The notes below the pieces were generated by a model that worked only from the letters and a program-made list of their open reading frames with translations, was not told where the DNA came from and searched no databases. A stretch of 64,000 bases of DNA from NCBI RefSeq assembly GCF_022846255.1, contig NZ_AP025682.1. One strand, written 5' to 3'. Below, piece after piece: positions 14,286-63,745 of the stretch. This DNA is from Escherichia coli (lineage in GTDB: Bacteria; Pseudomonadota; Gammaproteobacteria; Enterobacterales; Enterobacteriaceae). The translations under genes were made by a program, and so were the position numbers. The first letter of the stretch is position 1, and each line of letters begins with the position of its first letter.

Positions 14286-15536
14286 ATGGATGTCATGAGA
14301 AGTGTTCTGGGAATGGTGGTACTGCTGGCAATTGCGTTTTTGCTGTCAGTAAACAAGAAGAAGATCAGCCTGCGTACCGTTGGCGCGGCGTTAGTGTTAC
14401 AGGTCGTGATTGGCGGCATTATGCTTTGGTTACCGCCAGGGCGTTGGGTCGCAGAAAAAGTCGCTTTTGGCGTGCATAAAGTGATGGCGTACAGCGACGC
14501 GGGTAGCGCATTTATCTTTGGTTCTCTGGTCGGACCGAAAATGGACACCTTATTTGATGGCGCAGGATTTATCTTTGGTTTCAGGGTATTACCGGCAATT
14601 ATCTTCGTTACAGCACTGGTGAGTATTCTCTACTACATCGGTGTGATGGGGATCTTAATTCGCATTCTCGGCGGTATATTCCAGAAAGCATTGAATATCA
14701 GCAAGATTGAGTCATTCGTCGCGGTCACTACCATTTTCCTCGGGCAAAACGAAATTCCGGCAATCGTCAAACCCTTTATCAATCGTCTGAATCGCAATGA
14801 ATTATTTACAGCGATTTGTAGCGGGATGGCCTCGATTGCTGGTTCGACAATGATTGGTTACGCCGCACTGGGCGTGCCTGTGGAATATCTGCTGGCGGCA
14901 TCGTTAATGGCGATCCCCGGCGGGATCTTGTTTGCCCGCCTGTTAAGCCCGGCAACAGAATCTTCGCAGGTTTCCTTTAATAACCTCTCTTTCACCGAAA
15001 CACCGCCAAAAAGCATTATTGAAGCCGCTGCGACAGGGGCAATGACCGGGCTGAAAATCGCCGCAGGTGTGGCGACAGTAGTGATGGCATTTGTCGCCAT
15101 CATTGCGTTAATTAACGGTATTATCGGCGGCGTTGGCGGCTGGTTTGGCTTTGAACATGCCTCGCTGGAGTCCATTTTAGGTTACCTGCTGGCCCCACTG
15201 GCGTGGGTAATGGGTGTTGACTGGAGTGATGCGAATCTTGCCGGGAGTTTGATTGGACAGAAACTGGCAATAAATGAATTTGTCGCTTACCTCAATTTCT
15301 CACCTTATCTGCAAACAGCTGGCACTCTGGATGCTAAAACCGTGGCGATTATTTCCTTCGCGTTGTGCGGTTTCGCTAACTTTGGTTCTATCGGGGTGGT
15401 GGTGGGGGCGTTTTCTGCGGTTGCGCCACACCGTGCACCGGAAATCGCCCAGCTTGGTTTACGCGCGCTGGCGGCGGCGACACTTTCTAACCTGATGAGT
15501 GCAACCATTGCAGGATTCTTTATTGGCTTAGCGTAG
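14286..15536 (+). CDS. nupX: NupC-family (CNT) nucleoside permease, paralog of psuT
   Basis: 416-aa ORF, about 85-90% identical to the psuT product along the full length by eye (last ~40 residues identical). Confidence 0.9.
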   Translation: MDVMRSVLGMVVLLAIAFLLSVNKKKISLRTVGAALVLQVVIGGIMLWLPPGRWVAEKVAFGVHKVMAYSDAGSAFIFGSLVGPKMDTLFDGAGFIFGFRVLPAIIFVTALVSILYYIGVMGILIRILGGIFQKALNISKIESFVAVTTIFLGQNEIPAIVKPFINRLNRNELFTAICSGMASIAGSTMIGYAALGVPVEYLLAASLMAIPGGILFARLLSPATESSQVSFNNLSFTETPPKSIIEAAATGAMTGLKIAAGVATVVMAFVAIIALINGIIGGVGGWFGFEHASLESILGYLLAPLAWVMGVDWSDANLAGSLIGQKLAINEFVAYLNFSPYLQTAGTLDAKTVAIISFALCGFANFGSIGVVVGAFSAVAPHRAPEIAQLGLRALAAATLSNLMSATIAGFFIGLA

Positions 15537-15591: not shown

Positions 15592-16680
15592 TTACACCAT
15601 CGGCACTAATGAAAGCGCGTTATCGGCAGACAGGGTAGGGTTGTTTAAGCTGCCGCTGGCGCGTGAAATTGCCGCGCAGGCCATCGCAAAACGGGCGCTG
15701 TCACGGAAATTGTTTCCCTCCAGAAAGCTATATACCAGGCCCGCCATAAAACCATCGTCAGCACCAAAACTGTCTACTGTCGTATGCGCTGGCGCTGTCA
15801 GCAAAAATTGCTCTCCATCCTTTTCGCTGCAATAAACTGACTCATCGGGCAAATAAACAAACAGTTGCTGAACGCCTTGCTGATGCAACGCATTCACTGC
15901 GGCATTACGGTCAGCATCGCTGGTGATCGCCTGTCCCCATAAAATTTCCAGCTCCGGTAAAGTGGGTTTCAGGGTGTGAATATGCGCCAGCCAGTGTTTG
16001 ATTTTGCCCGCTTTGAATTCTGAAACGGTATCGACAAACACCGGGATTTCATCAGCGAGGGTAAAGACCCATTCCAGCGCCTCGGCTGTCAGGTTACAAT
16101 CAGCAAGTACCACGCCCGCATGACGAAGTAAATCGCGCGACCCGTTCAGTAGTTGCGGTGTCAACTGATCCAGCAGATGGGTATCGTTAATCGCCAGCAC
16201 GGTTTGATCGTCTCGATTGGCAATTGCCAGATACGTCGATGTGCTTTGGCCATGTAAACGAACGCAGCCGGAGACATTCACGCCGGCGCGGCGCGTTTCT
16301 TCCAGGAGCATTTCGCCATAAAAGTCATCGCCAATCACTGAAAGCAAATGGACGTCGCGGCCTAACAGCGCCAGATTGTGGGCGATATTGCGTCCAACGC
16401 CGCCTGCCGAGCAATGAATGGTACCGGGATGAGAAGCCGCTTGCGGGTAACGGATATCCGCCATCCCGCGAATATCCATATTGATTGTCCCCACCACTAC
16501 GCAGTATTCCTGCTCGGTGAGAATGTAACCTTTGCCTTTAATCCGGCCTTTGCGCATTAAATCCATAATATGCGCCGCAACGCGCGAACGGCTGATTTGC
16601 AGCATATCCGCAATTTCGTTCTGTTGAATCAGCGGGTTACGCCGTAAAATTTTAAGAATCTGCTTTTCCCTGTCGTTCAT
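15592..16680 (-). CDS. yeiI: Putative kinase: N-terminal winged-helix HTH fused to a PfkB-family (pseudouridine-kinase-like) carbohydrate kinase
   Basis: 362-aa ORF; N-terminus QNEIADMLQISRSRVAAHIMDLMRKGRI (HTH-like), then GGVGRNIAHNLALLG as in PsuK; start lies 3 nt after the nfo stop. Confidence 0.88.
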   Translation of the reverse strand: MNDREKQILKILRRNPLIQQNEIADMLQISRSRVAAHIMDLMRKGRIKGKGYILTEQEYCVVVGTINMDIRGMADIRYPQAASHPGTIHCSAGGVGRNIAHNLALLGRDVHLLSVIGDDFYGEMLLEETRRAGVNVSGCVRLHGQSTSTYLAIANRDDQTVLAINDTHLLDQLTPQLLNGSRDLLRHAGVVLADCNLTAEALEWVFTLADEIPVFVDTVSEFKAGKIKHWLAHIHTLKPTLPELEILWGQAITSDADRNAAVNALHQQGVQQLFVYLPDESVYCSEKDGEQFLLTAPAHTTVDSFGADDGFMAGLVYSFLEGNNFRDSARFAMACAAISRASGSLNNPTLSADNALSLVPMV

Positions 16681-21610: not shown

Positions 21611-23602
21611 ATGTTTAGGTTGAACCCTTTCGTACGGGTCGGGCTGTGTTTGTCCGCTATTTCTTGTGCATGGCCTGTGTTAGCGGTCGATGATGATGGC
21701 GAAACGATGGTTGTCACTGCATCTTCCGTTGAACAAAACCTTAAAGATGCTCCCGCCAGTATTAGCGTCATTACCCAGGAAGACCTGCAGCGAAAACCGG
21801 TACAGAATCTGAAGGATGTCCTCAAAGAAGTGCCTGGCGTACAACTGACGAACGAAGGGGATAACCGTAAGGGCGTTAGTATTCGTGGTCTGGACAGCAG
21901 CTACACCCTGATTCTCGTCGACGGTAAACGCGTTAACTCCCGCAATGCCGTCTTCCGCCACAATGATTTCGATCTGAACTGGATCCCGGTCGATTCCATC
22001 GAACGTATTGAAGTGGTCCGTGGCCCGATGTCGTCGCTGTACGGTTCCGATGCGCTCGGCGGTGTAGTGAATATCATCACCAAAAAAATCGGTCAGAAAT
22101 GGTCGGGCACCGTTACCGTCGATACCACCGTTCAGGAACATCGCGATCGCGGTGATACCTATAACGGTCAATTCTTTACCAGCGGACCATTAATTGACGG
22201 CGTGCTGGGAATGAAAGCTTACGGCAGCCTGGCAAAACGTGAAAAGGATGACCCGCAAAACTCAACGACCACCGATACCGGAGAAACGCCGCGTATTGAA
22301 GGATTCTCCAGCCGCGACGGCAATGTCGAATTTGCCTGGACACCGAATCAAAATCACGATTTTACTGCCGGATACGGTTTCGACCGTCAGGATCGTGATT
22401 CCGACTCGCTGGACAAAAACCGCCTGGAACGCCAGAACTACTCCGTCAGCCATAATGGGCGTTGGGATTACGGCACCAGCGAACTGAAATACTACGGTGA
22501 GAAAGTCGAGAACAAAAACCCTGGCAACAGCAGCCCGATAACTTCCGAAAGCAATACGGTCGACGGCAAATACACGTTGCCGCTGACGGCGATTAATCAG
22601 TTTCTCACGGTTGGCGGTGAATGGCGTCACGACAAACTTAGCGATGCGGTGAACCTGACCGGGGGAACCAGCTCCAAAACGTCTGCCAGCCAGTACGCGC
22701 TGTTTGTGGAAGATGAATGGCGGATCTTCGAGCCGCTGGCGCTGACGACCGGCGTGCGTATGGACGATCACGAAACCTACGGTGAACACTGGAGTCCGCG
22801 TGCCTACCTGGTTTATAACGCCACCGACACCGTAACGGTGAAAGGGGGCTGGGCGACGGCATTTAAAGCCCCTTCTCTGTTGCAACTTAGCCCTGACTGG
22901 ACGAGCAATTCCTGCCGTGGCGCATGTAAGATTGTGGGTAGCCCGGATCTGAAACCAGAAACCAGCGAAAGTTGGGAGCTGGGGCTTTACTACATGGGTG
23001 AAGAAGGCTGGCTGGAAGGGGTTGAATCCAGCGTTACCGTTTTCCGTAACGATGTGAAAGATCGTATCAGCATTAGCCGTACGTCTGACGTCAATGCTGC
23101 ACCGGGCTACCAAAACTTTGTCGGTTTTGAGACGGGCGCTAACGGACGGCGCATACCGGTATTTAGCTACTACAACGTTAACAAAGCTCGTATTCAGGGC
23201 GTGGAAACCGAACTGAAAATTCCGTTCAACGATGAATGGAAACTGTCGATCAACTACACCTACAACGATGGTCGTGATGTCAGCAACGGCGAAAACAAAC
23301 CGCTATCCGATCTGCCGTTCCATACTGCTAACGGTACGCTGGACTGGAAACCGCTGGCGCTGGAAGACTGGTCATTCTATGTTTCTGGTCACTATACCGG
23401 GCAGAAACGCGCCGACAGCGCGACGGCTAAAACACCGGGCGGTTATACCATCTGGAATACCGGCGCGGCCTGGCAGGTGACTAAAGACGTCAAACTGCGC
23501 GCAGGCGTGCTGAACCTTGGCGACAAGGATCTCAGTCGTGACGACTACAGCTATAACGAAGACGGACGTCGTTACTTTATGGCAGTGGATTATCGCTTCT
23601 GA
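21611..23602 (+). CDS. cirA: TonB-dependent outer-membrane receptor for catecholate siderophores / colicin Ia-Ib receptor
   Basis: 663-aa ORF with signal peptide, TonB box (ETMVVTAS), and a C-terminal beta-barrel ending in aromatic F. Confidence 0.93.
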
Positions 23603-41890: not shown

Positions 41891-41930
41891 CGCAGTGAGG
41901 TGCGTGGTTATTTCAATGGGTAAAATTTTG

Positions 41931-42006
41931 GTAGGCATGATAAGACGCACAAGCGTCGCATCAGGCATGGTGCACCGGATGTCGGATGCGGCGCGAACGC
42001 CTTACC
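41931..42006. repeat. BIME: two REP units between yohF and yohD
   Basis: GTAGGCATGATAAGACGCACAAGCGTCGCATCAGGCA and CACCGGATGTCGGATGCGGCGCGAACGCCTTACC. Confidence 0.8.
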
Positions 42007-49780: not shown

Positions 49781-50938
49781 GTGACTTATCTACGTATTAA
49801 TCCTGTTCTGGCGCTGCTGCTGTTGCTGACGGCAATCGCAGCGGCGCTGCCGTTTATCAGTTACGCACCTAATCGTTTAGTTTCGGGTGAGGGGCGTCAT
49901 CTCTGGCAGCTGTGGCCGCAAACTCTCTGGATGCTGGTGGGCGTTGGTTGCGCCTGGCTGACAGCCTGTTTTATTCCCGCTAAAAAAGGCAGCATTTTTG
50001 CACTCATTCTGGCGCAATTCGTCTTCGTATTGCTGGTGTGGGGAGCTGGAAAGGCGGCGACACAACTGGCGCAAAATGGCAGTGCGCTGGCGCGTACCAG
50101 CCTCGGCAGTGGTTTCTGGCTGGCTGCGGCGCTGGCACTGCTGGCCTGTAGCGATGCCATCCGCCGAATCTCCACGCATCCGCTGTGGCGCTGGTTGTTG
50201 CATATGCAGATTGCCATTATTCCGCTGTGGTTGCTGTACTCCGGCACGCTTAACGATCTCTCGTTAATGAAAGAATACGCCAACCGTCAGGATGTGTTTG
50301 ACGACGCGCTGGCACAACATCTGACGTTGCTGTTTGGTGCGGTGCTGCCTGCGTTAGTGATTGGTGTGCCGTTGGGCATCTGGTGCTACTTTTCCACCGC
50401 GCGGCAGGGGGCGATTTTTTCTCTGCTGAATGTCATTCAGACCGTGCCTTCGATAGCGCTCTTTGGCCTGTTGATTGCGCCGCTTGCCGCGCTGGTTACG
50501 GCCTTTCCGTGGCTGGGAACGCTCGGCATAGCAGGAACCGGAATGACACCCGCACTGATTGCACTGGTGCTCTATGCCCTGTTACCGCTGGTGCGCGGCG
50601 TAGTAGTCGGCTTGAACCAGATCCCGCGCGATGTGCTGGAGAGCGCCAGAGCGATGGGGATGAGCGGGACGCAGCGTTTCCTGCATGTTCAGTTACCGCT
50701 GGCGTTACCGGTATTTCTGCGCAGCCTGCGGGTGGTGATGGTGCAAACCGTTGGCATGGCGGTGATTGCGGCGTTAATCGGCGCAGGCGGTTTTGGTGCG
50801 CTGGTTTTTCAGGGGCTGTTAAGCAGTGCCATTGATTTAGTGTTGCTGGGGGTGATCCCGGTAATTGTTCTGGCGGTGCTTACCGACGCGCTGTTCGATT
50901 TGCTTATCGCACTGCTGAAGGTGAAACGTAATGATTGA
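49781..50938 (+). CDS. yehY: Osmoprotectant ABC transporter permease
   Basis: 385-aa polytopic ORF. Confidence 0.9.
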
Positions 50939-51857
50939 ATTTAGCCATGTCAGCAAACTGATCGGCGCACAAAAAGCCGTTAACGATCTCAATCTCAATT
51001 TTCAGGAAGGGAGTTTTTCGGTGCTGATTGGCACATCTGGCTCCGGCAAATCCACCACCCTGAAAATGATTAATCGCCTGGTGGAGCATGACAGCGGCGT
51101 GATCCGCTTTGCCGGAGAAGAAATTCGTTCGCTGCCAGTGCTGGAGCTGCGCCGCCGGATGGGCTATGCCATTCAATCTATTGGCCTGTTTCCCCACTGG
51201 AGCGTGGCGCAAAACATTGCCACCGTGCCGCAATTACAAAAATGGTCGCGGGCGCGGATCGACGATCGTATCGACGAATTAATGGCGCTGCTGGGGCTGG
51301 AGCCGGATTTGCGTGAGCGTTATCCGCATCAGCTTTCCGGCGGTCAGCAGCAACGTGTGGGAGTGGCCCGCGCGCTGGCTGCCGATCCGCAAGTCTTGCT
51401 GATGGATGAGCCATTCGGCGCACTGGACCCGGTAACGCGTGGCGCGTTGCAACAAGAGATGACGCGCATTCACCGTTTGCTGGGGCGCACTATTGTGCTG
51501 GTCACTCATGATATTGATGAGGCGCTACGGCTGGCAGAACATCTGGTATTGATGGATCACGGTGAAGTGGTGCAGCAGGGCAATCCGCTGACGATGCTGA
51601 CTCGTCCGGCGAATGATTTTGTTCGCCAGTTTTTTGGACGTAGTGAACTGGGTGTGCATCTGCTTTCGTTACGTAGCGTGGCGGATTACGTGCGCCGTGA
51701 AGAACGGGCTGAAGGTGAGGCACTGGAAGAAAGGATGACGCTACGCGATGCGCTCTCCCTGTTTGTTGTGCGGGGATGCGAAGTGCTGCCGGTGGTGAAC
51801 ACGCAGGGGCAGCCTTGCGGCACACTGCATTTTCAGGATCTACTGGTGGAGGCGTGA
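50931..51857 (+). CDS. yehX: Osmoprotectant ABC transporter ATP-binding protein
   Basis: 308-aa ORF with Walker [10 protein letters not shown] and LSGGQQQR signature; overlaps the yehY stop. Confidence 0.92.
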
Positions 51858-51861
51858 GTGT

Positions 51862-52593
51862 ATGAAGATGTTGCGCGATCCGCTCTTCTGGCTCATTGCT
51901 CTGTTTGTGGTGCTGATTTTCTGGCTACCCTATAGCCAGCCGCTGTTCGGTGCTTTATTTCCGCAGCTGCCACGGCCCGTTTATCAGCAAGAAAGTTTTG
52001 CAGCTCTGGCGCTGGCTCATTTCTGGCTGGTGGGGATCTCAAGTTTGTTTGCTGTAATTATCGGCGTTGGTGCCGGAGTTGCCGTCACTCGCCCGTGGGG
52101 AGCAGCGTTTCGCCCGATGGTAGAAACCATTGCCGCCGTTGGGCAGACTTTTCCACCTGTAGCGGTGCTGGCGATTGCCGTTCCGGTGATGGGGTTTGGT
52201 CTGCAACCGGCGATTATCGCGCTGATCCTTTACGGCGTGCTACCCATCTTGCAGGCGACACTTGCCGGGCTGGGAGCGATTGATGCCAGCGTGACAGAAG
52301 TTGCGAAAGGTATGGGAATGAGTCGTGGTCAGCGACTGCGTAAGGTCGAGCTACCGCTGGCGGCTCCGGTGATTCTGGCGGGCGTGCGAACTTCGGTGAT
52401 TATCAACATTGGTACGGCGACGATCGCCTCAACGGTAGGGGCCAGCACGCTGGGTACGCCGATCATCATCGGGCTTAGCGGATTTAATACCGCGTATGTG
52501 ATCCAGGGGGCGTTACTGGTGGCACTGGCGGCGATCATCGCAGACCGCCTGTTTGAAAGGCTGGTGCAGGCGTTCAGCCAGCACGCAAAATAA
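51862..52593 (+). CDS. yehW: Osmoprotectant ABC transporter permease
   Basis: 243-aa polytopic ORF. Confidence 0.9.
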
Positions 52594-57238: not shown

Positions 57239-59242
57239 TCATCCTTGTTGCTGAAGCATGGGGAATAATTGTTCGCAAAGCAAAACACCGTTATTCATTG
57301 CTTCTACCCGTGCCTCGCTTTCTGTATTACGAAATTGTCCCAACACATGTGCCAGCCGATAAAAACCCACCGCGGTGAGGTCATTCGCCAGCAACTCTGC
57401 CTGACCAATAGCACTCTGTTCCTGATAGCGCCAGCCGTTATGGAGCAGTTGAATAAGTAACGCCTGGCAGCGCATCAGCAACTGATGAGCGGTAGACGGC
57501 ACAGGCAGAACGCTGGCAGAAGGTAGCGGTGCCACAGGCGCAGTTTCTGCGTCCAGCGCCCAGGCGCGGGTTTTTGTCATCATCACCCGTGGTTCCAGTG
57601 TTAATTGCCCCTCTACAAAACTGACAAAGCCAGAAACCAGGCTCACGGGGTCGTCTGTTTGTTGCAAAAGCGCCGCCATGCGTTCAACGGCAAAAGGAGA
57701 ACAGGCAGATGCCGGAAGGGATAACGTCAGCACATTATCTTCCCCTTCGCCGCTGATTACCTGCGCATCCAGTGTCTGGCGGCTGCTATCCCAACCGAGC
57801 GAAATACACTCCGCTACCGGCAGAATAAATAAGTTATCGACCTGGTTGAGTGGTCGTATGCAGGCGGGGGGACGCTGGCGTAAATATTCCCGCAAAGCCA
57901 CAATGCCCGGCTGGCGCAACGGCGCGCTCAACATTAGCCAGGCGTCTGGCGACAGTGGAACAACGCCACTCAAGCGGTTACGGGTCGCGAACAGCAGCTC
58001 GCAATCGGCACTGCGTTTTGCAGCTTGTGAAACAATTTGCCCACCTGCCAGTGCGCCAGCCTGAAAACTAAACAGCCGACGCGTCGCTGCCGGTGAGTTT
58101 TCCTGTTCGCTTCTCTGCCAACTACGCGAAAGATGCAAAATACTTCCTGTGTCGGGATCGGTAAACCAGATGCGTAAACCATACTGCTCAATATCCTGCC
58201 AGCAACGCATACCTAAAGACACCAGCCGCAGATGATCAAGTTTTGCTTCTCCGGCAATACCAGCGCCAACGACCGTGCGCCACGGCATGGGAGGAACTTC
58301 ACCGATACTGTCGCGTCGCGCCATCTCTTGTACGCAATTTAATCGACTGTTTAATGCCGCAAGCTGACGTAAGCATTCTCCGGCATGGTAGTGGCTGGCA
58401 CGGGCGTGGAAGGCATCAACACTGGCGCGCAATTGCCGTAGCGATTCACTCACCCATCGCCAGTTGCAGCGTTCCGCCGCTTGCTGCGCGCGACTGAAAG
58501 CGGCCTCGTAATGGATTGGCGGTTGACTTATCCCGCCCAGCCATAATGCCTGGCTTAATTGCTGAACATATTGACGACACGTTTTGCCTTCTTCGCTGGC
58601 AAACGGATCATCAGATGATGTGGCGTGTTCACTGCGCATCTGCCAGATTAAATGAGTAAATTCCGCTTGCTGAGTTTTGGCCTCGACGAAGGCCTGCACA
58701 GCCAGTACGACATGTTCGCAAAGTGTGCCTTCAATGCAATCACAGCGTGCGAAGCGAATGCTGCTGCGGGAATAAAAACGCACATCGCTCATCGGTAATC
58801 GGGCAGAGGGAATTTCGCCAGGCGCACAGAACAACTCAATGGTGATGCCTTTAGCGACCAGCGCCTGCGCGCGTTTGCGGGTGGCATCGGGCAAGGTAGC
58901 CAGTTCTTTCAGCCAGATTGCCGGATCCCACTCTTCTTCTTTTTTTTCCGTAGGCTGGGCGGTGGCACAAAGTCGTTGATAACTTAACACCAGCATCACG
59001 CGATGACGGCACATGCCGCTGGCCCCGCAGGTGCACTGAGCCTCTTTCAGTGCCTGACTGTTCGCCAGCTGTGTACGGACACCGTCACTGAAAGTGGCGA
59101 TTAAAGCGCCGTTCTCATGGCTGATCTCCGGGACGTTGCCATTTTCCAGTTCCTTAAGGCTGCGCTTAACAAAACCGGCATTGCTTAACGCCGTCAGTGC
59201 CTGTGGTGTCAGTTCTAATAATTCCGGACGTAGTGAATTCAT
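57239..59242 (-). CDS. yehQ: SWIM zinc-finger-containing protein (last gene of the yehL cassette)
   Basis: Two CxC…CxH SWIM-like motifs (CTCGASGMCRH, CDCIEGTLCEH); chosen ATG overlaps the yehP stop as ATGA; exact start uncertain (track ORF extends to 59266). Confidence 0.8.
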   Translation of the reverse strand: MNSLRPELLELTPQALTALSNAGFVKRSLKELENGNVPEISHENGALIATFSDGVRTQLANSQALKEAQCTCGASGMCRHRVMLVLSYQRLCATAQPTEKKEEEWDPAIWLKELATLPDATRKRAQALVAKGITIELFCAPGEIPSARLPMSDVRFYSRSSIRFARCDCIEGTLCEHVVLAVQAFVEAKTQQAEFTHLIWQMRSEHATSSDDPFASEEGKTCRQYVQQLSQALWLGGISQPPIHYEAAFSRAQQAAERCNWRWVSESLRQLRASVDAFHARASHYHAGECLRQLAALNSRLNCVQEMARRDSIGEVPPMPWRTVVGAGIAGEAKLDHLRLVSLGMRCWQDIEQYGLRIWFTDPDTGSILHLSRSWQRSEQENSPAATRRLFSFQAGALAGGQIVSQAAKRSADCELLFATRNRLSGVVPLSPDAWLMLSAPLRQPGIVALREYLRQRPPACIRPLNQVDNLFILPVAECISLGWDSSRQTLDAQVISGEGEDNVLTLSLPASACSPFAVERMAALLQQTDDPVSLVSGFVSFVEGQLTLEPRVMMTKTRAWALDAETAPVAPLPSASVLPVPSTAHQLLMRCQALLIQLLHNGWRYQEQSAIGQAELLANDLTAVGFYRLAHVLGQFRNTESEARVEAMNNGVLLCEQLFPMLQQQG

Positions 59243-60375
59243 GACTGAAGATTCTCCGCAAGCCATGATGCCAGCTCGCCCGGTGTCATGGCGGCTATTT
59301 GTGCGCCGACATTTACCAGCGCCTGGGCCGTATCGTGGTCATAGCAAGGTGTTGCGCTGCTATCGAGCGCCGCCAGTCCCAGCACTTTGATGCCGCTCTG
59401 GACACACTTTTTCACCTGATGCGTCAGCAATGATGATGACCCACCTTCATAAAAATCGCTCACGAGAATAATGACACTTTTTGCAGGTTGTTCAATAAGT
59501 TGCCGACCATACTCCACGGCACTGGCGATATTGGTCCCGCCGCCCAGTTGTACTTTCATTAATAACTCTACCGGATCGGCAACGTCTGCCGTGAGATCAA
59601 CCACGCTGGTGTCAAAAGCGACCAGATGGGTACGAATGCCGGGTAACTGCCATAAACAGGCCGCCATCACTGCGGAGTGGATCACCGAATCAACCATCGA
59701 TCCGCTTTGATCAACCAGTAGGACCAGTTGCCATTGTTCGCTATGGCGTTTAATGCGGCTGTTAAAGCGGGGGGATTCGATATACAACTTGCCGTGTTGC
59801 GGGTGCCAGTGTTGCAGGTTGGCGCGCAGAGTACTTTTGAAATCAAAGTTTCGCGCCAGTGAAATAAATGAGCGGCGACGGCGATCGCGTACTCCAGAAA
59901 AAGCCTGACGAACTTCCTTTGCCAGTCGCGCCATAATCTCTTCAACAACCTGGTGCACTATCCGGCGGGCGGCAGCCAGTACTTCGGGATTCATCAGATG
60001 TTTGGCGTGCAAAACGGCGCGTAGCAGGCTTTCAGAAGGCTGCATACGTTCCAGCACGTCGAGATTCGTCACCACATCTTCAATGCCGTAGCGCAGCACG
60101 GCATCGCTTTCCAGCCGCTCGATCACCCGTTGCGGAAACAGCGTGTGAATGCTGTTGATCCACTCAGGGGTGGTGAGATTTGAACGACCTAATCCACCGT
60201 AACGTTCACCACGCTGGAGCCGTTCAGGATCGCGCCCATACAGCCACTCCAGCGCGTGGTCTATCTGCCGGGCGTTGTCATCCAGCCCACAAAGCGTCGT
60301 TTCTGCCGCTTCGCCAAGAATTAATCGCCAGCGTTGTAGCTCACGGGTGGTCAGAAGATCGTTCAGTTCAGACAT
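59239..60375 (-). CDS. yehP: von Willebrand factor A (VWA) domain protein
   Basis: 378 aa from MSELNDLLTTREL…; MIDAS motif DQSGSM; start overlaps the yehM stop by 8 nt. Confidence 0.88.
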   Translation of the reverse strand: MSELNDLLTTRELQRWRLILGEAAETTLCGLDDNARQIDHALEWLYGRDPERLQRGERYGGLGRSNLTTPEWINSIHTLFPQRVIERLESDAVLRYGIEDVVTNLDVLERMQPSESLLRAVLHAKHLMNPEVLAAARRIVHQVVEEIMARLAKEVRQAFSGVRDRRRRSFISLARNFDFKSTLRANLQHWHPQHGKLYIESPRFNSRIKRHSEQWQLVLLVDQSGSMVDSVIHSAVMAACLWQLPGIRTHLVAFDTSVVDLTADVADPVELLMKVQLGGGTNIASAVEYGRQLIEQPAKSVIILVSDFYEGGSSSLLTHQVKKCVQSGIKVLGLAALDSSATPCYDHDTAQALVNVGAQIAAMTPGELASWLAENLQS

Positions 60376-62646
60376 GGAAAACTCCCCAGTGTTGCAGCGA
60401 TGCCAGTGCCTGCTGTTCGAGTTGTTGATGATGTGCAATGTCTTGTGGTGGACAATGCAACGGCATTTGCAGTGCCGAAACGGGAAGTTGCACCAGTTGA
60501 TAATGCTCAAGCACCTGATGTGCCAGCGTCCCGCGTTCTCGTGGTGGTAGCCAGGCCATCGCCGCGCGTAAATCGGGCAGGGCATTGATAAAATCGGCAT
60601 CACTCAGTTGATTTAAATGACTGCTGAAACCGGCGATAAATACCGGCTGACAGGCCAGTTGATGACGGGCTAATGCCAGCAAACCGTGCAGCGCCTCGCC
60701 GGATTGTGCCGGGGATAACTGCGCCAGCATCGTCAGCGCCGTTTCGGCACTGGCGTTGGGATGTTCCAGACGCATCAGTGCGCCAAGAGTCGCGCCGCGA
60801 TCCAGCGCCGGGGCATGAATCGCCTGACTGCGGCGCTCCAGTAAGGCTACTGCCGCAGAAAGCGAAACGCCGGGTAAATTAACGCCGCTATGTAGATCGC
60901 GCAGGATATGGCAAAGCGCCTGCCAGCTATGCAGGTGAGTGTGAAACTCCTTTTCATCCGGTCTGCCGTTGGATTCACATAGCCAGAGTGTGCGATCGAT
61001 AGCCGCGCATAACGTCGTCTGTAATATCTGCGCGCCTTGCATACCGCTAATTTCATCCAGCCGCCATAAGGCATATAGCACTTCCAGCGCCTGGCCCATT
61101 TCGGCGAATTGATTTTCCTGGGCGATTAATAATGTGAGTTGCTCCAGTAATTGTTGACTGAAGGACGCCAGACCCGCTAACGCCGCCTGGCTAAGACATG
61201 TGGTGATACTGCCGATTCCACCCGCGTCCAGCATATCGGCTTCTAATTTATTGCGTGCGGCTTCCTGGAGTGTGGCACCAAAGCAGGCGGCCTCAATTAA
61301 TGCCGCATGTTGCTAAGCGGGCGGGTTAATTTCCAGCGTTCTTCACCGTTGCCTGCAAGTGTCAGTGTGCTTCCCTGCTGGCGTACAATCCCTGGGATCT
61401 CCAGTATTGCCAGCCGATGTAACACCTGACTTTGCGCTAGTCCATTGGGGGTAAAGCGATTTAAGGTAAGCTCCGCCGGAAGAGAGATTGCGGTACGTTC
61501 CAGTTCGCAGGTGACATCTTTTGGCAGAGGCGGTTGTGGCGTAGAAGGGGCAAGTTTACCGAATCCGTCACCCGCTAATGTGTCTATCAACGTTAGCAGA
61601 ATCGGATCGGTATCGGGATGAATAACGCCGCGATAGCTCCACGGCAACGGCGCATTCAGGGCTTCTTTAATCAGCGATCCTGCTATGGCATCCAGCCAGT
61701 CAGTGCGTAACGGTAGTGTATGACCGCGCAACTGTGCCAGTGCCATCGCATGCAGATGAGCGGCAGCCATATCCGCGGTCGAAGCAGGCAACTTGTGCTG
61801 GCGCAAACGGGTGAGAACCGTTTTTAGCAATTGTTCTCCCGTCTGCTGTAAGCCCCACTGCCAGCACCAGTTTTGCCAGACCGGGGCAGGCATTCCTGAA
61901 AGGTATCCTGCCAGCACATCAAGGCGCTTTTCACTGTAGGGGGTGAGATAACAACCTGTAACGGCATCTGCCAGCGACGGCAATTCTGGCGTGTTAATTA
62001 CCTGCGGACATTCGCGCCACATTTTTGCCAGTGCCGGAGCGTGCCAGCCACCGCAGACAACTAACACGTCGCCATTATTTTGCTGCATCGCCCATGTAAT
62101 CCAGCGGGCCATAAAGGCTTCGCGCTGACGATTGAGAGCATCTCCGGGGGAGTCGCCCCGCAGTTGGGCAAAATAGTGCGCCAGTGCAGAGGGTAATGCA
62201 GTTTGCTGGCTTTCATCTTCGAACAAGTGATCCCACAGGGTGTCGCTGTTATCCATGCGGGTGGCACGCAGCAGCAAGGTCTGGCTTTCCTCTTGCGTAT
62301 CAGGCGAATCGTCCTCTTCTTCACTCTGCGCCCAGCAAGGCAAATCGATGAAGTAAGTTTGTGCCTGAATACGACGAGCGGCTTGTAGCGCCTGCCACTC
62401 CGGCGAAAATTCAGCATATGGCGTCCAGGCACCACGCCCGGGGGCTGCACCGTCCTGATACTGGCAATAACTGTAAATAGCTACCGGAAGCTGGTGGGCT
62501 AAAAACAGTTCGTCTACCCGGTCATTAAAATCAGCCGGGCCTTCAATCAACACGTATCGTGGCCGCTGGCTTTCGATTAACGATTTCACCAGCCGGGCGC
62601 AGGCCGGACTATGATGCCGGATGCCGACAATTAACGGCTCGCTCAT
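60368..62646 (-). pseudogene. yehM: Large uncharacterized protein of the yehL cassette, interrupted by a frameshift in this sequence
   Basis: Two abutting minus-strand ORFs in different frames (61297..62814 and 60368..61234); the upstream frame stops at 61297-61299, the downstream frame is open only below 61313. Confidence 0.6.
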
Positions 62647-62656
62647 GCATCTTTCC

Positions 62657-63745
62657 TCACGGCAGGCGGTGGCGGGCTTGATAATAAGCCTGCCAGTGAG
62701 CTTCTTTATGTGTGGCGACTCGCTGTTCGAAGTAACGGCGCAGACGAGCGCGATCTTCTTCGTTATCTTTGACGATGGTTCCGGCAATACAGTCCACCAG
62801 ATCGGCTGGCTCACCTGCGCGATTCGCTAAAAACCAGGCGCGGACGCCCACTGCGTGGGCCACGTTCACGGCTTCAGCGGTGGACATAATTGCCGTCAGG
62901 GTATCCATTGACGTTTTCTTTTCGCCGTTGGCACGCAGATCGCGGAAGGTGCGGACCAGTAACTCCAGTACCGCGTCAGGCACTTTATGCGGAATACCGC
63001 TATGGGCCAGCAAACGCGCCGAAGCACTGGCGACCAGTTCCAGCTCCTGGGCGAAATCCATAATCGGAAAGACGGTTTCAAAATCGAAGCGACGCTTTAG
63101 CGCGGCACTCATCTCATTGACGCCGCGATCGCGTGTATTGGCAGTGGCAATAATATTAAAGCCTTCCCGCGCATAGAGCTGACTGGCTTCACCGGTGAGT
63201 TCCGGCACCGTCATCACCCTGTCAGAAAGCATACCTAACAGACAGTCTTGTACTTCCAGCGGTGTACGCGTTATCTCTTCAAAACGGACGATTTTGCCGT
63301 CGCGCATTCCCTGGTAAAGCGGGGCAGGGACCAGTGCTTCCGTTGACGGACCATGGTTGATAAGCAGGGCGTAGTTCCAGCCGTACTTGATTTGATCTTC
63401 GGTGGTAGATGCGCCGCCCTGGATGGTTAACCCGGCATCGCCGCTAATAGCGGTTGCCAGTAATTCAGACAGGAGAGATTTTGCGGTGCCAGGTTCCCCC
63501 ACCAACATCAAACCGCGCCCGGTGGCAAGAGTGACTAACATACGTTCGACAGCGGAGGGACTAATCACCACTTTACGGCTAATATTTTGCGCGCTATCGC
63601 CAAGGATAAAAGCACGGGCCGCAGGCAAACTTAACTGCCAACCGGGCGGGCAAGGTGCGTGATCATTTTGTTTTAATTTTGCCAGTTCATCGGCGTATAA
63701 CACAGCGGCAGGCGGACGCTGCAGATGATTATTCTGCGGTGACAT
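62657..63745 (-). CDS. yehL: MoxR-family AAA+ ATPase
   Basis: 362 aa from MSPQNNHLQRPP…; Walker A LVGEPGTAKS, Walker B and sensor regions. Confidence 0.9.
   Translation of the reverse strand: MSPQNNHLQRPPAAVLYADELAKLKQNDHAPCPPGWQLSLPAARAFILGDSAQNISRKVVISPSAVERMLVTLATGRGLMLVGEPGTAKSLLSELLATAISGDAGLTIQGGASTTEDQIKYGWNYALLINHGPSTEALVPAPLYQGMRDGKIVRFEEITRTPLEVQDCLLGMLSDRVMTVPELTGEASQLYAREGFNIIATANTRDRGVNEMSAALKRRFDFETVFPIMDFAQELELVASASARLLAHSGIPHKVPDAVLELLVRTFRDLRANGEKKTSMDTLTAIMSTAEAVNVAHAVGVRAWFLANRAGEPADLVDCIAGTIVKDNEEDRARLRRYFEQRVATHKEAHWQAYYQARHRLP

Follow-up and report, generated by a model that had tools for sequence, protein, structure and literature searches.

Does the window, the 64,000-nt stretch of Escherichia coli DNA analysed here, carry a working yehM gene? 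yehM is the largest member of the yehLMPQ operon, which lies on the minus strand, and its coding sequence is presented there as two overlapping reading frames. Such a layout could reflect a genuine mutation, a base dropped from the consensus, recoding during expression or a protein made in two pieces. The features of the locus, in operon order, are as follows.

62657..63745, minus strand: yehL, a MoxR-type AAA+ ATPase (PF07728, AAA_5), 362 aa, intact, the first gene of the operon
61297..62646, minus strand: yehM N-terminal fragment, comprising 445 native codons (Met1-Ser445), 4 out-of-frame codons and TAA, placed by translation and alignment
61313..61315, minus strand: TAG (cTTAGc) marking the upstream limit of the C-terminal frame
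61312..61313, minus strand: site of the 1-bp deletion, one C lost from CC, the sole gap in the yehM alignment
60368..61312, minus strand: yehM C-terminal remainder, codons 446-759 plus TGA, out of frame with the start
59239..60375, minus strand: yehP, a VWA-domain protein, 378 aa, intact
57239..59242, minus strand: yehQ, a SWIM zinc-finger family protein, 667 aa, intact

Gene starts and lengths were set by the RefSeq annotation of the orthologous region, which gives 362 aa for yehL, 2,280 nt and 759 aa for yehM, 378 aa for yehP, and 667 aa for yehQ. The four genes are closely spaced. The end of yehL is separated from the yehM ATG by 10 nt, the yehP ATG and yehM stop overlap by 8 nt (yehM stop at 60370-60368, yehP start at 60375), and the yehQ ATG and yehP stop overlap by 4 nt (ATGA). 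This order, with its overlaps, matches the RefSeq-annotated strains PT62, DL21, 09A19CPO009, and N3. By tblastn, the whole of reference YehL (residues 1-362) aligned to the window, 99.2% identical and free of gaps and stops.

Direct reading of the minus strand gave an upstream frame running ...ERWKLTRPLSNMRH, closed by the TAA at 61299-61297, and a downstream frame running QHAALIEAACFG..., which is bounded upstream by the TAG at 61315-61313 and stays open to the yehM stop at 60370-60368. Three-frame translation of the minus strand over 61100-61500 agreed, with the first frame (...GNGEERWKLTRPLSNMRH) ending at the same TAA and the downstream frame (QHAALIEAACFGATLQEAARNKLEADMLDAGG...) uninterrupted after the same TAG. 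This out-of-frame TAG is equally present in intact yehM genes. The ORF list for this strand holds 61297..62814, the longest ORF, which uses an upstream GTG start, and 60368..61234, a 288-aa ORF counted from the first ATG; by the RefSeq annotation of the orthologue, the real yehM start is the ATG at 62646.

Measured from that ATG, yehM spans 2,279 nt in the window, where intact references have 2,280 nt (759 codons and a stop). When window positions 60200-63000 were aligned with PT62 and DL21 in MAFFT, exactly one gap appeared, and BLAST against 09A19CPO009 and N3 returned the same lone gap within yehM. Where the references read CCG CTT AGC/AGT CAG/CAA CAT GCG GCA, the window has CCG CTT AG- CAA CAT. 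As strain N3 carries a locally identical allele with the extra C (CTTAGCCAACATG), the event can be defined: where codons 445 and 446 meet, between 61313 and 61312, a CC pair was reduced to a single C, which converted AGC-CAA (Ser445-Gln446) to AG-CAA. The product from the normal ATG is 449 aa long, made up of 445 native residues followed by NMRH, and 314 of the 759 residues (codons 446-759) are displaced from the frame. The first start codon in the remainder frame is the ATG at 61234 (Met472), which opens the hypothetical 288-aa ORF. When one base was added back, a 759-aa ORF was recovered that aligns full-length with intact YehM. Against all four references the indel length is not a multiple of three, and the premature stop follows four codons on. 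Since the TAA falls after 449 codons, where an intact gene would be a single ORF of about 759 codons, the locus is a pseudogene of the DUF5682 family and not a working member.

These results agree with most of what a sequence-only reading of this DNA had proposed. It had described an upstream frame ending at the TAA at 61297-61299, recovered here by direct reading of the minus strand, and a downstream frame open only below the TAG at 61313-61315, recovered by reading and translation alike. The intact length that it gave, roughly 759 aa, was right, and its explanation of the split, a 1-bp deletion, fits both the single gap against four intact genes and the full-length ORF obtained on restoring the base. 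The change had been placed within 61300-61312; a one-base change does lie at the upper edge of that range, with the exact spot now put at the 61313/61312 junction. The example it offered, a G lost from a CGGGCA run, gives way to a C of the CC pair at codons 445/446. It had also proposed alignment to reference yehM genes from several strains, and all four used here (PT62, DL21, 09A19CPO009, and N3) proved intact, leaving the one gap in the window.

The lesion is already visible in public records as two adjacent "hypothetical proteins". GenBank entry BDH32865.1 (hypothetical protein TRECRb50_16810, from the 4.94-Mb chromosome of E. coli TRECRb50) is exactly the 449-aa product, GDA47944.1 is a second GenBank record with an identical product, and BDH32864.1 is the entry for the 288-aa ORF. 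Among the 5,426 complete RefSeq E. coli genomes, 5,212 carry the yehM region at a coverage of at least 80%, and none has an exact match to the 121 nt surrounding the site; the best matches reached 121/122, with the gap as the sole difference. Deletion-junction probes (53 nt) were made for the two main allele backgrounds and built so that intact alleles cannot supply the 28-nt seed. Neither found a match in any of the 5,426 complete genomes, and the 54-nt intact control probe matched 5,017 of them. An exact 42-nt probe across the deletion had no match in GTDB representative genomes or in JGI metagenome contigs, and no identical intact allele was on record when the repaired 759-aa protein was searched for by exact match. 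The absence of the junction from complete genomes, GTDB representatives, and JGI contigs indicates that the deletion is private to the TRECRb50 clone. The lineage of the window is poorly represented among complete RefSeq genomes, whose identity to the window does not exceed 98.4% (over 25 kb). The lineage may belong to cryptic clade I, and the strain name hints at a Japanese collection; literature searches on the strain and run names returned no papers. Gene order matches that of complete genomes except for a nupX-like gene, and no IS elements interrupt the window.

Several other differences from the closest complete genome, 09A19CPO009, were observed along the window. The nupX-like gene, encoding a NupC-family transporter with 88.7% amino acid identity to PsuT, is the second of its kind in the window and is intact (14286-15533, plus strand); the closest genome has only a 66-nt remnant at this place. 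It adjoins a sugar-kinase gene (15595-16680, minus strand) with 86% protein identity and many compensating indels in the DNA, and judging by this divergence the segment 14286-16680 looks like a divergent or recombined one. The cirA gene (21611-23602) is intact at 663 aa. In 09A19CPO009, 7 bp (a GAAACCA repeat unit) are missing relative to the window at about 22951, and cirA is annotated as frameshifted, so this pseudogene is the reference's and not the window's. The yohF-yohD intergenic region (41922-41932) has 10 extra bases (4 + 6, AAAA and TTTGGT) compared with the closest genome. Finally, YehX and YehW, of an osmoprotectant ABC transporter (50931-52590), have about 95.8% protein identity to the closest genome, compared with 99-100% for most neighbours, and may possibly represent a recombined patch.

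To place the break within the protein, we considered the family, its conservation, and its predicted structure. Repaired 759-aa YehM matched PF18934 (DUF5682) with E = 1.7e-97 over residues 20-715 (model positions 1-695 of 727), so that one Pfam model spans the break, and both yehM fragments bear PF18934 in precomputed hits. Across 58 aligned homologues, Gln446 never varies and residues 448-453 hardly do; the lost part includes Gln446 and the conserved QxAALIEAA helix. In the AlphaFold model of YehM (mean pLDDT 85.3, pTM 0.79), residues up to about 440 form a mixed alpha/beta part and residues 445-753 are all helical; the break falls on the first residue of helix 445-456. Judged by alignment and model, the break is probably a damaging one, just ahead of the invariant Gln446 and the conserved helix. 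Below 90% identity, every homologue (Klebsiella, Erwinia, Serratia, Massilia, Burkholderia, and others) is a single protein, 758-859 aa long and with 99-100% query coverage, and all of the shorter YehM matches are E. coli fragments.

The sequence-only reading had left the choice between a strain-specific pseudogenisation and a sequencing or assembly error. Were it an error, yehM would be intact in the strain and one base would have been dropped from the consensus, and consensus errors typically take the form of single-base indels. Logan contigs from runs DRR322657, DRR322658, and DRR102846, assembled separately, nonetheless all encode the 449-aa product and carry the deletion, and the product stands under two GenBank accessions; these three runs and two accessions may represent one isolate or several, and they are evidence at the level of assembled contigs rather than raw reads. 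Over 5.4-5.7 kb, two of the three run contigs match the window at 100%. In the third (DRR322658, L006), two homopolymer lengths are the only differences: a C6 run in yehP (59769-59774) is C5, and an A8 run in yehQ (58940-58947) is A7, each splitting its gene there. These shortenings most likely arose as read errors in DRR322658, and they do show that at least one read set of the clone yields homopolymer errors; at the yehM site, however, this error-prone contig agrees with the others. (Strain N3 has A5 at the A8 run of yehQ, an in-frame 3-nt length polymorphism.) The deletion context, moreover, is a CC pair with no long homopolymer. The rest of the window also argues against an error: the other reference proteins are full length in 55 of 55 cases, with no gaps and no stops, and comparison with the closest complete genome (98.0-98.4% identical) reveals just one indel in the 64 kb that frameshifts a conserved gene, the one in yehM; the remainder are intergenic, mutually compensating in a divergent allele, or due to the reference's own cirA frameshift. 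We therefore regard an error as highly improbable and consider that yehM very probably lost its function through a genuine and recent mutation specific to this clone. One that became fixed in a single strain or laboratory stock is possible and would look alike; it would still be a real mutation.

A real deletion might still be compatible with a working YehM in two ways. In one, a -1 ribosome shift in the overlap, or polymerase slippage, would be programmed and would yield the full-length protein; formally this would succeed, as re-reading a single C after AGC restores the native Ser445-Gln446 exactly. The permissive overlap (61312-61300, C AAC ATG CGG CAT) nevertheless contains no X XXY YYZ slippery heptamer or homopolymer run, and the RNA of 61325-61200 folds no better than shuffles (MFE of -40.4 kcal/mol; the shuffles average -37.5; z = -0.76), with 48 of 200 shuffles folding equally well or better. 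More distant homologues are all single ORFs, and the two-frame layout occurs in 0 of 5,426 complete genomes, compared with a single frame in at least 5,017. The same survey answers the sequence-only reading, which had pointed to a two-ORF structure in strains with an intact protein as evidence that would overturn pseudogenisation; no complete genome has the deletion junction. Recoding is, in our estimation, extremely improbable. In the other, the 445-aa N-terminal module and the restarted 288-aa product (Met472-Val759) would assemble into a working two-piece YehM. In the AlphaFold model the break does lie near the place where the mixed alpha/beta part (1-440) gives way to the all-helical one (445-753), a weak Shine-Dalgarno-like AGAAG stands 5 nt upstream of the ATG at 61234, and the 288-aa ORF is called as a gene on Logan contigs as well as being a GenBank protein. 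The restart product would, however, be missing residues 446-471, that is, the invariant Gln446, Leu450, Ile451, Glu452, Gly457, Leu460, and Ala463 and two predicted helices. Also against it, a single Pfam model crosses the junction, homologues below 90% identity are never split (in every case 758-859 aa at 99-100% coverage), and the breaks of other lineages fall at different places (codons 9-11, 424, 438, and 461), as random decay gives. We judge such a functional split to be very unlikely, and we give marginally less credence to the statement that the two pieces (1-445 and restarted 472-759) work together or that the N-terminal module alone is partly functional with YehL and YehP. If true, either would mean that nature has dissected the domains of an uncharacterised protein.

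Returning to the genuine loss-of-function mutation, we asked how old it is and what it would do. Among intact yehM alleles dN/dS is 0.07-0.15, so yehM is under purifying selection in the species; compared with these strains, the window allele after repair has a ratio of 0.10-0.20, well short of 1. With yehL, yehP, and yehQ intact and repaired yehM without clear relaxation of selection, the lesion appears to be recent. In the TRECRb50 lineage, one C was lost from the CC spanning yehM codons 445/446; translation from the ATG at 62646 then proceeds to Ser445, adds NMRH, and stops at the TAA at 61297-61299, leaving a 449-aa product in which 314 of the 759 residues of the DUF5682 protein are missing, the entire all-helical part at the C-terminus. 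Such a truncated YehM would be non-functional and the operon would thereby be crippled. Because the genes are so tightly packed (a 10-nt gap and overlaps of 8 nt and 4 nt), the premature stop may also affect downstream genes: lying about 920 nt upstream of the yehP start, it probably removes translational coupling, and expression of yehP and yehQ may be lowered through polarity.

Searches on the operon proteins gave little indication of function. PADLOC returned no hits for the four proteins, NCBIfam only weak, sub-threshold AAA and VWA similarities, and a PDB sequence search no related solved structure; Foldseek against the PDB gave nothing below E = 0.02, with only weak resemblance to alpha-solenoid proteins. 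Our literature search on DUF5682 found nothing, and that on yehLMPQ and yehQ showed, among the papers listed, no functional study of the operon and no phenotype. In K-12, yehL and yehM are silenced by H-NS/StpA and derepressed in hns/stpA mutants (PMC3686432), and in Shigella sonnei lineages 2 and 3 a 7-kb deletion takes out yehM and yehL (PMC12795559). Other lesions of yehM were also collected from E. coli.

codon 424: nonsense mutation (L015)
codon 438: nonsense mutation (L013)
codon 461: nonsense mutation (L011)
codon 424: 1-bp deletion in a GGG run (L010, L014)
codons 9-11: 7-bp deletion (L012)

In-frame internal deletions of yehM were likewise seen in other E. coli, and truncated products are encoded on complete chromosomes (e.g., STM51329.1, QKN41247.1, and BDZ04502.1). 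Read errors probably account for some of the other-lineage lesions, namely ones whose contigs have many split genes. The clustering of other lineages' lesions at codons 416-461 was set aside as an ascertainment effect, since these alleles were chosen for the same 288-aa ORF call. Different yehM lesions in other E. coli lineages mark the case as routine decay of an accessory operon, and the window's yehM is an ordinary strain-specific pseudogene, in keeping with a deletion that was found in the contigs of three read sets and in 0 of 5,426 complete RefSeq E. coli genomes. Together, the many independent lesions and the purifying selection on intact alleles suggest that the benefit of the operon depends on the niche, some niches favouring it and others allowing its loss.

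The relevance beyond the strain is small, this being a further case in which an accessory operon, H-NS-silenced in K-12, decays by a single-base change. For annotation, 60368-62646 is best marked as one frameshifted yehM pseudogene in place of GenBank's two hypothetical proteins. The strain also offers a natural yehM-null background, possibly a polar one, for studies of YehLMPQ (MoxR ATPase, DUF5682, VWA, and SWIM proteins).

Compared with known systems, the window's yehM is closest to intact E. coli yehM (DUF5682, PF18934; e.g., WP_001294384.1 of DL21), with which it shares its place in the operon, its length once the base is restored, and 96-97.5% protein identity. It differs from the intact gene in the missing C, which leaves a 449-aa product and an out-of-frame remainder instead of 759 aa. 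Programmed -1 frameshift sites such as dnaX and IS1 insAB' resemble it in that overlapping frames fuse upon a one-base back-slip; unlike those sites, the window's yehM has no slippery heptamer, no stimulatory RNA structure, and no conserved two-frame layout, and it was rejected as a site of this type. The other disrupted yehM alleles of E. coli and Shigella resemble the window in that yehM is lost and its neighbours are mostly kept, but they arose independently and at different positions, and none carries the codon 445/446 C deletion.
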